From assembly GCA_965153355.1 (NCBI GenBank), contig OZ231126.1, positions 13,144,001-13,208,000 on the forward strand: a stretch of DNA of 64,000 bases, in the 5' to 3' direction. This DNA is from Flaccisagitta enflata (lineage: Eukaryota). The translations under genes were made by a program, and so were the position numbers. Numbering within the stretch: the stretch's first letter is position 1; each line of letters starts with the position of its first letter. The notes beneath the pieces are model-generated. The model did not search any database. It was not told the DNA's origin and saw only the letters and a list, made by a program, of their open reading frames with translations. This document shows positions 50,714 through 52,963 of this stretch, piece after piece.

Positions 50714-50966
50714 ATGAAGTTAATCGCGTTTTTGGCGATTGTCGGAGTTTTTGTCGGAGTCTCTTGGTAAGTGATCCATGTGATCATGCAAATTAATGAC
50801 ATACGTACACTATTAAAAGCTGATACGCTGATACGCTTAACAACTGATCCAAAGCTAGTTTTATGTGGAAATGATTTGATGGGGTAGCTAGCATCGCAAA
50901 AATGCAAAAAATCATGATGATCGGAACCAGAGAGTCGCATTTAAAAAACAATTTATGTTGTTGTTT

Positions 50967-51054
<88 letters not shown>

Positions 51055-51136
51055 GTTGTTGTTGTTGTTGTTGTTGGTGTTACTATTTTCGTTATTAACG
51101 CTTTCCTGTCTGGACTGTGCGTTCGATTGTCTGTGC

Positions 51137-51184
<48 letters not shown>

Positions 51185-52963
51185 ACCCCGCATTACTTGT
51201 TTTTACACTCTAGTGAGGACATCAAAAAGGGCGAAGTGGAGGAGAATACTGCTAAAGTTTTGGCCAGGGCTGCGAGGAGGGTGAAAGATATTCCTCCCTG
51301 GGGTCCGACTCCTCCTGACCTTTGTGGAGGCAGAAACGAATCATGCCACCCAGTAGCGGGATGCTGCCGGGGCTACAATGTAAGTTCAGCGATCTTGTAT
51401 ACACGTTATTGATACCATATTCTTCGAAATGCATTTGAATTTTTTGAACGTGTCCGGGTACAGGATTTTAGGTAGATTTTTGTGATTATCTCATCATTTC
51501 CCCCCCCCCATGACATGACCGATATTGCGCAAAATATAATATGTATTTTTCTATGGTTTTGTGGTTTTTCTATACAGTGCATTGATGGAATTTGTACTTG
51601 CAAGCGCATTGGTGATTTGTGCAGAGCGACATCTGATTGCTGTTGGGACACTATGGTAAGTTTTGGCTCTTGGTTATAATCTAGATCAAAGTTTCATTTG
51701 CAATGCAGGGAAGTCAGAACCAACGATAATGCACTCTTTTCTAACAGTGTGATGGCGGAGTTTGTTCAAGAGTACAACCATGCCAAGAAGCTGGAGACTA
51801 TTGCTTAACCAGTAAAGAATGCTGCGGAAATGGAATAGTGAGTGGATATGAAACTGTTTTGGTTCAATGTCTCTACCCTCTGCCTTTGTTCATATGTTTA
51901 CGCATTCTTAATTTTGATACACGATAAATGTGGCGCTTTTGTGATTCCGTGGTTGTTAATATTAGTTGTCCTGCATTGATTGCTTTTCCCTTGTCATTCT
52001 GCAGTGTGAAAAGCGCCGCTGCGTCCCTGTAGAACGTCAAGTTTTGGCCAGGGCTGCGAGGAGGGTAAAAGATTTTCCTCCCTGGTCGCCGACTCCTCCT
52101 GACCTTTGTGGAGGCAGAAACGAATCATGCCACCCAGTAGCGGGATGCTGCCGGGGCTACAATGTAAGTTCAGCGATCTTGTACACACATTACTGATACC
52201 ATATTCTTCGAAATGCATTTGAATTTTTTGAACGTGTACGGGTACAGGATTTTAGGTAGATTTTTGTGATTATCTCATCATATCCCCCCCCCCCATGACA
52301 TAACCGATACTGCAGAAAATATAATATGTATTTTTCTATGGTTTCGTGGTATTTCTATACAGTGCATTGATGGAATTTGTACTTGCAAGCGCATTGGTGA
52401 TTTATGCAGAACGACATCTGATTGCTGTTGGGACACTATGGTAAGTTTTGGCTCTTGGTTAAAATCTAGATCAAAGTTTCATTTGCAATGCAGGGAAGTC
52501 AGAACCAACGATAATGCGCTCTTTTCTAACAGTGTGATGGCGGAGTTTGTTCAAGGGTACAACCATGCCAAGAAGCTGGAGACGATTGCTTTACCAGTAA
52601 AGATTGCTGCGGAAATGGAATAGTGAGTCGATATGAAACTGTTTTGGTTCAATGTCTCTACCCTCTGCCTTTGTTCATATGTTTGCGCGTTCTTAATTTT
52701 GATACACGTTAAATGAGGCGCTTTTGTGATTCCGTGGTTGTTAATATTAGTTGTCCCGCATTGATTGCTTTTCCCTTGTCACTCCGCAGTGTGAAAAGCG
52801 CCGCTGCGTCCCTGTAGAACGTCATGGCTCCAGGTCAAAGCGTCGCCCACATCGTTATGCGATTCCGGGTAGGATCGATGGTACAAAGATTTTCTACTGC
52901 TGTCAACATAATGAAATGAAAATCGTCTTTTTTAGATCGACATTTGTCACATGTAGGCGGTAA
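50714..52963 (+). CDS. Secreted multi-knottin (ICK-like) precursor, 6 cystine-knot modules (A-B-C-A-B-C), ~295 aa if the last exon is unspliced
   Basis: Exons 50714-50766, 51214-51379, 51578-51655, 51748-51837, 52005-52163, 52363-52440, 52533-52622, 52790-52963, all GT-AG and in frame: signal MKLIAFLAIVGVFVGVSC, acidic pro-piece ending RAARR, then CGGRNESCHPVAGCCRGYNCIDGIC / CKRIGDLCRATSDCCWDTMCDGGVC / CQEAGDYCLTSKECCGNGICEKRRC, then VLARAARR and a second triplet. The 3' end is uncertain. Confidence 0.9.

Follow-up and report, generated by a model that had tools for sequence, protein, structure and literature searches.

We examined a 64,000-nucleotide stretch of Flaccisagitta enflata DNA (contig OZ231126.1, positions 13,144,001 to 13,208,000 of the forward strand; hereafter the window), in which a reading made from the letters alone had proposed a hidden eight-exon gene encoding a secreted polyprotein with six knottin modules. 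This gene, here gene 1, is expressed and spliced. It has nine exons, and its product of 266 amino acids, which ends in Gly-Gln (GQ), carries six cysteine modules of one exact spacing. On balance, we think it probable that the product is a secreted two-unit precursor in which each unit holds three linked inhibitor cystine knots (ICKs), and that it serves as an extracellular binder of high affinity.

The RNA evidence came from a pool of six metatranscriptome datasets of three marine (plankton) studies and one raw-read polyA run (X7). Four runs (X1, X2, X3 and X7) were aligned to 51190-53400, of which X1, X2 and X3 consist of contigs. Together with the sequence, they give the following gene model.

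50714..50766, forward strand: coding part of exon 1, with the ATG at 50714 and the hydrophobic leader; closed by a GTAAGT donor in phase 2.
51214..51379, forward strand: exon 2, with the pro-region and the first RAARR, a Pro-rich arm, and Cys I-IV of knot 1.
51578..51655, forward strand: exon 3, phase 0-0, with Cys V-VI of knot 1 and Cys I-IV of knot 2; RNA cover in X1.
51748..51837, forward strand: exon 4, phase 0-0, with Cys V-VI of knot 2 and Cys I-IV of knot 3; drawn from sequence only.
52005..52163, forward strand: exon 5, chimeric, with Cys V-VI of knot 3, the linker with the second RAARR, and Cys I-IV of knot 4.
52363..52440, forward strand: exon 6, with Cys V-VI of knot 4 and Cys I-IV of knot 5; both flanking joints in X2 and X3.
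52533..52622, forward strand: exon 7, with Cys V-VI of knot 5 and Cys I-IV of knot 6; joint 52622>52790 in X1, X2 and X3.
52790..52868, forward strand: exon 8, corrected, with Cys V-VI of knot 6 and a basic tail with KRR; joint 52868>52987 in X1, X2 and X3.
52987..53210, forward strand: exon 9, new, with the final two codons, the stop at 52992-52994 and the 3' untranslated region; RNA contigs extend to 53210.

In the contig runs, RNA depth was confined to the exons and the intron bins stood at zero. Four of the seven junctions first proposed were observed directly, namely 51379>51578 (intron 2) in X1, 52163>52363 (intron 5) and 52440>52533 (intron 6) in X2 and X3, and that of intron 7 in all three runs; junctions 3 and 4 were not seen. 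A fifth, that of intron 1, is backed indirectly by X2 and X3 contigs whose exon-1 letters run straight into exon 2, appearing as loose ends ahead of 51208. Their alignment begins at 51208, since exon 1 and intron 1 end in six letters with a single mismatch between them; this similarity would also explain the fifth, unlisted difference of the X2 contig. Exon 2 is overlain by contigs from X1, X2 and X3, and one X3 contig stops at 53210 and then continues as a run of A. With exon-only depth, observed joints and this poly(A) loose end, the gene proves to be expressed, and its transcript is spliced and polyadenylated. An X3 joint 52038>52986 with 23 foreign letters was set aside; it is probably another family member aligned on common letters, not a splice of this gene.

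All seven GT-AG introns of the sequence-only reading have canonical ends, and the spliced frame is open from the ATG at 50714. Its last exon had been drawn to 52963 and had to be shortened: an eighth intron (GT..AG, 52869-52986), whose joint is carried by contigs of all three contig runs, removes the last 29 residues with three extra Cys, so that the product has 266 rather than 295 amino acids. Introns 2-7 are all of phase 0 and each lies immediately before the fifth Cys of one module; consequently, each of these exons joins the end of one knot to the start of the next, and every knot is split by an intron, as had been noted. An Rfam scan of the window gave 0 matches. The gene is an example of how abundant, probably secreted peptides of marine plankton escape annotation based on open reading frames (ORFs).

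At its N-terminus the protein has, as proposed, a hydrophobic putative signal peptide (residues 3-17, Kyte-Doolittle mean 2.7), which was also judged by the small residues ahead of the Glu-Asp start of the pro-region. The pro-region had been described as an acidic propeptide ending in RAARR; the RAARR is present, and the first half alone is acidic, the whole having 5 Asp or Glu against 6 Lys or Arg. The second RAARR lies between modules 3 and 4, where it had been placed. All six modules (residues 55-79, 81-105, 111-135, 164-188, 190-214 and 220-244) show the exact spacing C-x6-C-x5-CC-x4-C-x4-C. They are not independent of one another, however, for three modules have been doubled by duplication. 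The part of the pattern that lies within one exon, C-x6-C-x5-CC-x4 with Cys-free loops, was counted 11 times over the six reading frames of the window (six in this gene, five in a neighbouring copy, gene 2) and 0 times in 20 codon-block shuffles of the window, which shows that the module pattern is not due to chance. An earlier count of 188 regular-expression matches came from poly-Cys frames of microsatellites and was discarded.

Each unit consists of a Pro-rich arm and three differing modules, joined by linkers of 1 and 5 residues without a basic pair. The three modules of a unit have in common only the Cys frame and 0-2 of 19 other residues, which argues that they are old and distinct. Knot 1 has an N-x-S/T sequon in its loop 1 that all five close family members share, a hint of glycosylation.

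The doubling of the unit is visible in the DNA.

51255..52826, forward strand: tandem duplication of about 785 bp, copies at ~51255-52039 and 52040-52826, introns included.

The two copies are identical at 752 of 788 alignment columns (~4.6% of columns differ), their intron pairs differ at 2-6% of aligned bases, and the two units agree at 93 of 104 aligned residues. The joint is in frame within the coding sequence: it fused the beginning of the last knot exon to the later portion of exon 2, which gave exon 5. The duplication is recent, and the "six knots" are best read as a triple-knot unit doubled, 2 x 3. The RNA supports the doubling, since the exon 5 chimera is possible solely in a doubled gene and its positions 52010-52118 (109 bases) are covered with 0 differences in X1 and X2, which belong to two studies. 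Summed substitution counts give a pN/pS of ~0.6 within the gene and ~1 between copies, with too few differences to judge selection.

A search of 5.8 billion proteins with the exon-5 peptide returned one longer match, P0001 (129 amino acids, 90% identity). P0001 is a spliced product and runs from the end of knot 2 through a whole pro-region to knots 1-3. Used as a query against 1.84 billion representatives, it found 10 proteins at E<=1e-3, four close and six distant, which makes for a very small family. Among the close relatives, all of them unannotated (no protein name), P0002 (165 amino acids, 69% identity) is a complete single-unit form with the same leader, RAARR, three knots and GQ end, while P0003 and P0004 are unspliced genomic ORFs whose intron translations are nearly identical to the introns of the window. 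The repeat homologue search of the 5.8-billion set returned P0001-P0004 alone, and two metagenome-contig scans, with P0002 and P0001 as queries, found no locus. The best score for P0001 in the ESM Atlas was 0.80, which we take as a lead only.

The family is also diverse in the sea. RNA contig variants of X2 and X3 cluster in the pro-region at 51254-51276, where they also affect the codon that precedes the final Arg of the basic site; these are population or paralogue variants, and several family members are co-expressed in the sea samples. Loose ends of X2 and X3 contigs at 52081 match an insertion of the P0002/P0003 type.

By sequence, the modules fit the ICK class, with six Cys in a C-C-CC-C-C framework of ~25-40 residues found in six modules of gene 1 and five of gene 2. 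AlphaFold2 models were made of P0002 and P0001, close relatives rather than the gene 1 product itself. In both, each complete module is modelled with one beta hairpin; the knot region has a pLDDT of 74-88 (P0002) and 61-79 (P0001), and the pro/linker part is of low confidence and partly helical, with a linker pLDDT <50, so that the linker is plausibly accessible. The Foldseek lists consist mostly of ICK peptides (DkTx, hanatoxin, the remipede double-ICK Xt3a, EETI-II, SGTx1, omega-atracotoxin and conotoxin GXIA), with a target-normalised TM of ~0.7-0.78 and an rmsd of 0.9-1.8 A on several rows, and VIA, a comparison independent of Foldseek, places many ICK toxins at Z 2-3, one module each. Since the domains have 25 residues, Foldseek and VIA scores cannot reach significance; they agree with three knottin-like modules and are no proof of them. 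The modules thus carry the ICK framework and would be knottin-like in fold, with no structural match that is significant.

Profile searches gave weak matches, to knottins and Dickkopf alone. The database's precomputed label for P0001 holds Toxin_12 (PF07740); in our Pfam scan P0001 scored 18.7 bits for this family (E 0.0028, cut-off 21), and exons 2 and 5 of the window alone gave no match. P0002 reached 18.3 bits for Toxin_19 (PF08088, cut-off 23.2) and gave no row at E<=1 for Conotoxin_I2 (PF17557) or Conotoxin (PF02950). Dickkopf_N scored 10.4 bits in P0002 and up to 24.2 in distant relatives, the cut-off being 25. A PDB sequence search found nothing significant (best Dkk2, E 1.8); the weak rows were knottins at E 0.07-0.6 in the profile search and Dkk2/Dkk4 at E 0.5-1.8 in sequence searches. 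A match to an already described family had been named as what would undo the novelty of the gene, and none of these families claims it in the Pfam, PDB and homologue searches.

Searching the window by tblastn with the spliced gene 1 product found a sole further gene, the head-to-head copy gene 2, within an inverted duplication.

47330..45314, reverse strand: gene 2, head-to-head copy of gene 1, with eight exons, 236 amino acids and five knots (1, 2, then 1, 2, 3).
47330-47278, 46826-46670, 46477-46400 and 46307-46146, reverse strand: coding exons of gene 2, homology model on gene 1.
45954-45877, 45784-45695, 45524-45440 and 45321-45314, reverse strand: coding exons of gene 2, continued, homology model on gene 1.
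35658-47898 against 50183-58623, inverted: inverted duplication, 91-95% identity, carrying both knot genes.
49617-49626: assembly gap of 10 N in the 2.3-kb spacer of the inverted duplication.

Gene 2 owes its five knots to an in-frame joint other than that of gene 1; both of its basic sites read RAAWR, and it too ends in GQ. One X3 contig carries a 6-base insertion typical of the gene 2 tail, which indicates that the gene 2 form is also expressed. The arms of the inverted duplication measure 12.2 kb (left) and 8.4 kb, the left one with ~3.1 kb and ~1 kb of extra sequence. The arrangement may be a true palindromic duplication. Alternatively, scaffolding may have joined two haplotypes, and the genes would then be six-knot and five-knot alleles. 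Both arms contain purine/pyrimidine microsatellite arrays of 1.2-1.6 kb (36882-38539 and 55927-57383), and a (GTT)n + (CT)n block lies in intron 1 of both knot genes (50957-51077 and 46990-47090).

Two further features lie on the reverse strand of the window. ORF pieces at 22787-22981 and 26011-26193 gave sub-threshold matches to PTHB1_hp (E 8.7e-5) and PTHB1_CtH (E 5e-3) and, ordered as one gene, are probably the 3' part of a BBS9 gene of a ciliated eukaryote; a homologue search with this exon returned nothing, and Pfam scans of 65 and 74 ORFs of the window gave no other such hint. Two adjoining ORFs (148 and 190 amino acids) at 30178-31455 resemble a transposon-type protein; the nearest Atlas clusters of the 190-residue ORF score 0.94-0.96 and are spread across ctenophores, rotifers, plants and arthropods.

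We propose the following history and fate for the gene and its product. The ancestral form would have been a single triple-knot unit, as in P0002, which an in-frame tandem duplication of 785 bp then doubled in gene 1; other members, the five-knot gene 2 and P0001, gained modules by different in-frame routes. After cleavage of the leader, the three tightly linked knots would most likely stay together as one multivalent peptide, because the linkers between them have 1 and 5 residues and hold no basic pair. The precursor may also be cut at the basic linker into two triple-knot peptides, and the duplication would then raise dose rather than valency. As for the role, the product is a candidate extracellular binder, most likely a toxin-like or defence-like molecule that binds a membrane protein or an enzyme.

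Several observations weigh against this picture. In the RNA, the junctions of introns 3 and 4 are absent from the X1-X3 contigs, so that a complete six-knot transcript is not seen in one piece; no contig aligned at >=95% covers the letters that set exon 4 apart from its copy; one X1 contig splices exon 3 to the exon-7 position; and 0 raw polyA reads of X7 aligned, from ~6% of the run, which does not amount to a test. As to processing, the dibasic pair is lost in three of seven family sites (W-R, W-R, L-R), and the X2 and X3 contig depth over the codon before the last Arg is entirely of a non-basic variant. With their neutral to slightly acidic charge, the modules depart from most membrane-active defence peptides. 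Neither the gene nor its close relatives reach a Pfam cut-off, the models were built on 5-sequence alignments with a mean pLDDT of 60-61, and the disulfide pairing, which in an ICK runs I-IV, II-V and III-VI with the last of these threading the ring, is unreadable from them. Foldseek returned 0 rows at E<=1e-3 for both models, and the best VIA row (Z 3.9) is the Dickkopf-1 C-terminal domain over modules 1-2, not a toxin.

The RNA findings bear on the assembly. The doubled unit or the gene pair could be an artefact, either a mis-expanded repeat or haplotypes joined at a gap, with fewer real knots. The 10-N gap in the spacer between the 8.4- and 12.2-kb arms would fit this, as would the X1 contig that joins exon 3 to the exon-7 position and the fact that exon 4's own letters are unseen in RNA. 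Contigs from two independent studies, however, match the duplication joint in exon 5 letter for letter, and the divergence of the two copies means that they are no simple collapse or expansion error. The haplotype reading would alter gene 2 only, turning a paralogue into an allele. We consider such an artefact very unlikely. As for the X1 contig, exon 4 and the exon-7 position are alike in all but one of the 33 letters involved, and the contig represents a variant exon 3-4 junction or else a three-knot form.

The basic site, a candidate proprotein-convertase site (R-x-x-R or a basic pair) that bears on the fate of the precursor, reads RR in gene 1 (at both sites) and in P0002, KR in P0003, W-R in gene 2 (both sites) and L-R in P0001. 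Thus, the residue before the last Arg is R, R, R, K, W, W or L, and four of the seven sites are dibasic. The units might then not be separated at all, and the product would be one secreted penta- or hexavalent protein of the class of secreted cysteine-rich repeat proteins (SCREPs), with module number tuning avidity. Such a fate would suit the change from RR to W-R or L-R in the family and in the RNA variants of X2 and X3, the retention of three different in-frame module gains, and the linkers within the units, in which basic pairs are lacking. On the other hand, the last Arg is kept in all seven sites, the site lies in a low-confidence, probably flexible stretch of the models, and the same motif closes the pro-region after the leader. 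Cutting at a motif in that position is the usual fate in such precursors. An uncut product seems to us possible and rather doubtful; the predicted cut into two near-identical triple-knot peptides of ~105-115 residues each is itself doubtful. We continue to prefer a precursor of linked triple knots.

Module charge and abundance bear on the role. A host-defence (antimicrobial) or protease-inhibitor knottin precursor, in which tandem copies raise the yield, would be in keeping with three squash trypsin inhibitors among the nearest structures (EETI-II, MCTI-A and MCoTI, target-normalised TM 0.68-0.74), with the plant TIPTOP precursors, which are multi-knottin polyproteins for inhibitors, and with a contig word depth of ~10-100 in bulk plankton RNA of three studies, which suggests that the transcript is not rare. 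We regard this role as unlikely, given that the modules are not cationic (net charge 0, -1 and 0 for modules 1, 2 and 3), that the single knots have no cleavage sites between them, and that no inhibitor family gave a significant match. The neutral or slightly acidic modules speak weakly against a membrane-active antimicrobial peptide, and their charge fits a specific protein binder, for example a channel-directed toxin or inhibitor.

The fold searches raise a different possibility. Modules 1 and 2, with their one-residue link, might form one domain similar to Dickkopf, colipase or prokineticin, and the product would be a signalling ligand rather than a chain of independent knots. The best VIA row spans 52 residues of modules 1-2 at an rmsd of 3.5 A, with Draxin, Bv8 and a colipase-like spider peptide next (Z 2.7-3.0), and there are the weak Dickkopf_N scores in relatives and the Dkk2 and Dkk4 rows in PDB. 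Every one of these scores is beneath a meaningful level, though, and the six-Cys spacing recurs three times, each module alone superposing on ICK peptides. We hold a Dickkopf-like domain to be highly improbable and retain three ICK-type modules in each unit.

Among the distant relatives, P0007, P0010, P0005 and P0006 matched P0001 at E 7e-6 to 3e-4. Under a loose C-C-CC-C-C pattern P0005 has two modules and P0007 three; P0010 (134 amino acids) has three, all with the 6-5-0-4-4 spacing of gene 1; and P0006 (330 amino acids) has at least nine ICK-pattern modules and exceeds the Pfam Conotoxin_I2 cut-off in six stretches (40.3 against 27 bits). These four proteins resemble gene 1 in their tandem modules of the same or nearly the same spacing. 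They differ from it in that some are bacterial, and in having other leaders and neither the pro-region nor the basic site; on our own reading of its sequence, the leader of P0007 is twin-arginine in look. The likeness may owe much to the Cys frame. Long tandem knottin arrays such as P0006 and P0010 thus exist unannotated in public data.

The cluster of P0007 includes a hypothetical protein of a Thermomicrobiales metagenome-assembled genome (MAG). Loci of Chloroflexota MAGs (Thermomicrobiales and Chloroflexia; L001 2001-2396 and L002 2001-2345) encode small secreted-looking proteins with three tandem C-x6-C-x5-CC-x4-C modules. The Chloroflexota triple-module proteins match the plankton protein at E ~3e-5, and P0002 and P0007 are 34% identical over 85 residues. 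This likeness could reflect common descent, gene transfer or convergence. A bolder view would see here the first animal-type family with an obligate triple ICK product, in which knot number (3, 5 or 6) is changing at present by repeated in-frame recombination, perhaps even as alleles of one species, and whose ancestry is perhaps common with that of the Chloroflexota proteins. With their units intact, its products would exceed all known knottin ligands in valency. We put this forward tentatively and would not expect it to hold in full.

Multivalent knottins, DkTx and Hi1a among them, are valued as probes and drug leads because their linked knots bind channels with unusual avidity. The present family offers a natural series of 3, 5 and 6 knots in which the effect of valency, linker length and processing on activity can be studied, and a clear case of domain gain through in-frame recombination.

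Among the closest known systems are animal toxins. DkTx, Hi1a/Hc1a, Xt3a (xibalbin 3) and U1-Pm2a carry, like the product of gene 1, tandem ICK modules in one secreted peptide, and two of them, DkTx and Xt3a, rank near the top of the Foldseek list for the P0002 model. Available parts of two reports describe shifts in the module number of ICK toxins by unequal recombination (PMC13172734, PMC5577568), and one of them describes the remipede double ICK (PMC5577568). According to the portion of PMC13172734 (MBE 2026) at hand, a triple-domain ICK peptide was undescribed before U1-Pm2a, which is known from transcripts only. Literature searches for triple-domain ICK peptides and tandem knottins gave nothing relevant besides that report, those for copepod ICKs and zooplankton knottins no such gene, and those for four peptide motifs no match. 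In animals the layout is thus almost undescribed, with no match to a described family and U1-Pm2a as the one precedent in the library searched. The bivalent and putative trivalent toxins differ from the present family, in which the unit is built of three unlike knots and a precursor holds 3, 5 or 6; they show no significant sequence match to gene 1, and a venom context is known for none of the family. In the funnel-web spider Hadronyche cerberea, the accessible text of the same report places the whole mature ICK peptide in one exon (PMC13172734), whereas every knot of gene 1 is divided by a phase-0 intron.

Plant TIPTOP precursors (Momordica MCoTI) hold several knottin domains, which, as an excerpt of the source has it, are released singly and cyclised by asparaginyl endopeptidase at Asn/Asp (PMC7101308). 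Gene 1, by contrast, has no sites between single knots, has its basic sites between triple units, and lies in what looks like an animal-type, intron-rich genome. That most such precursors carry one knot, as the sequence-only reading had it, is right for animal toxins and does not extend to the TIPTOPs or to unnamed database proteins with from three to at least nine modules.

SCREPs are an operational class defined by a secretion signal and at least two tandem disulfide-rich domains, and the part of the survey at hand reports few ICK-type repeats and a dominance of Kunitz domains (PMC6262176). With its putative leader, judged from hydrophobicity and small residues, and its tandem disulfide-rich domains, the gene 1 product would be a SCREP of the "combinatorial domain repeat" type, ABCABC.

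With Toxin_12 (huwentoxin-type), Toxin_19/Conotoxin_I2 and the conotoxins of framework VI/VII, the modules have the C-C-CC-C-C framework in common, and differ from them in gene structure and tandem layout. Progranulin is a polyprotein of tandem Cys-rich modules whose exons each run from the final part of one module into the first part of the following one. It resembles gene 1 in this split-module exon layout and differs in its 12-Cys motif and fold, without sequence relation. Precursors with several ICKs are known already, and gene 1 introduces no new principle; what it adds to them is the triple-knot unit, the exons that split every knot, and a family in which the number of knots ranges from 3 to 6.

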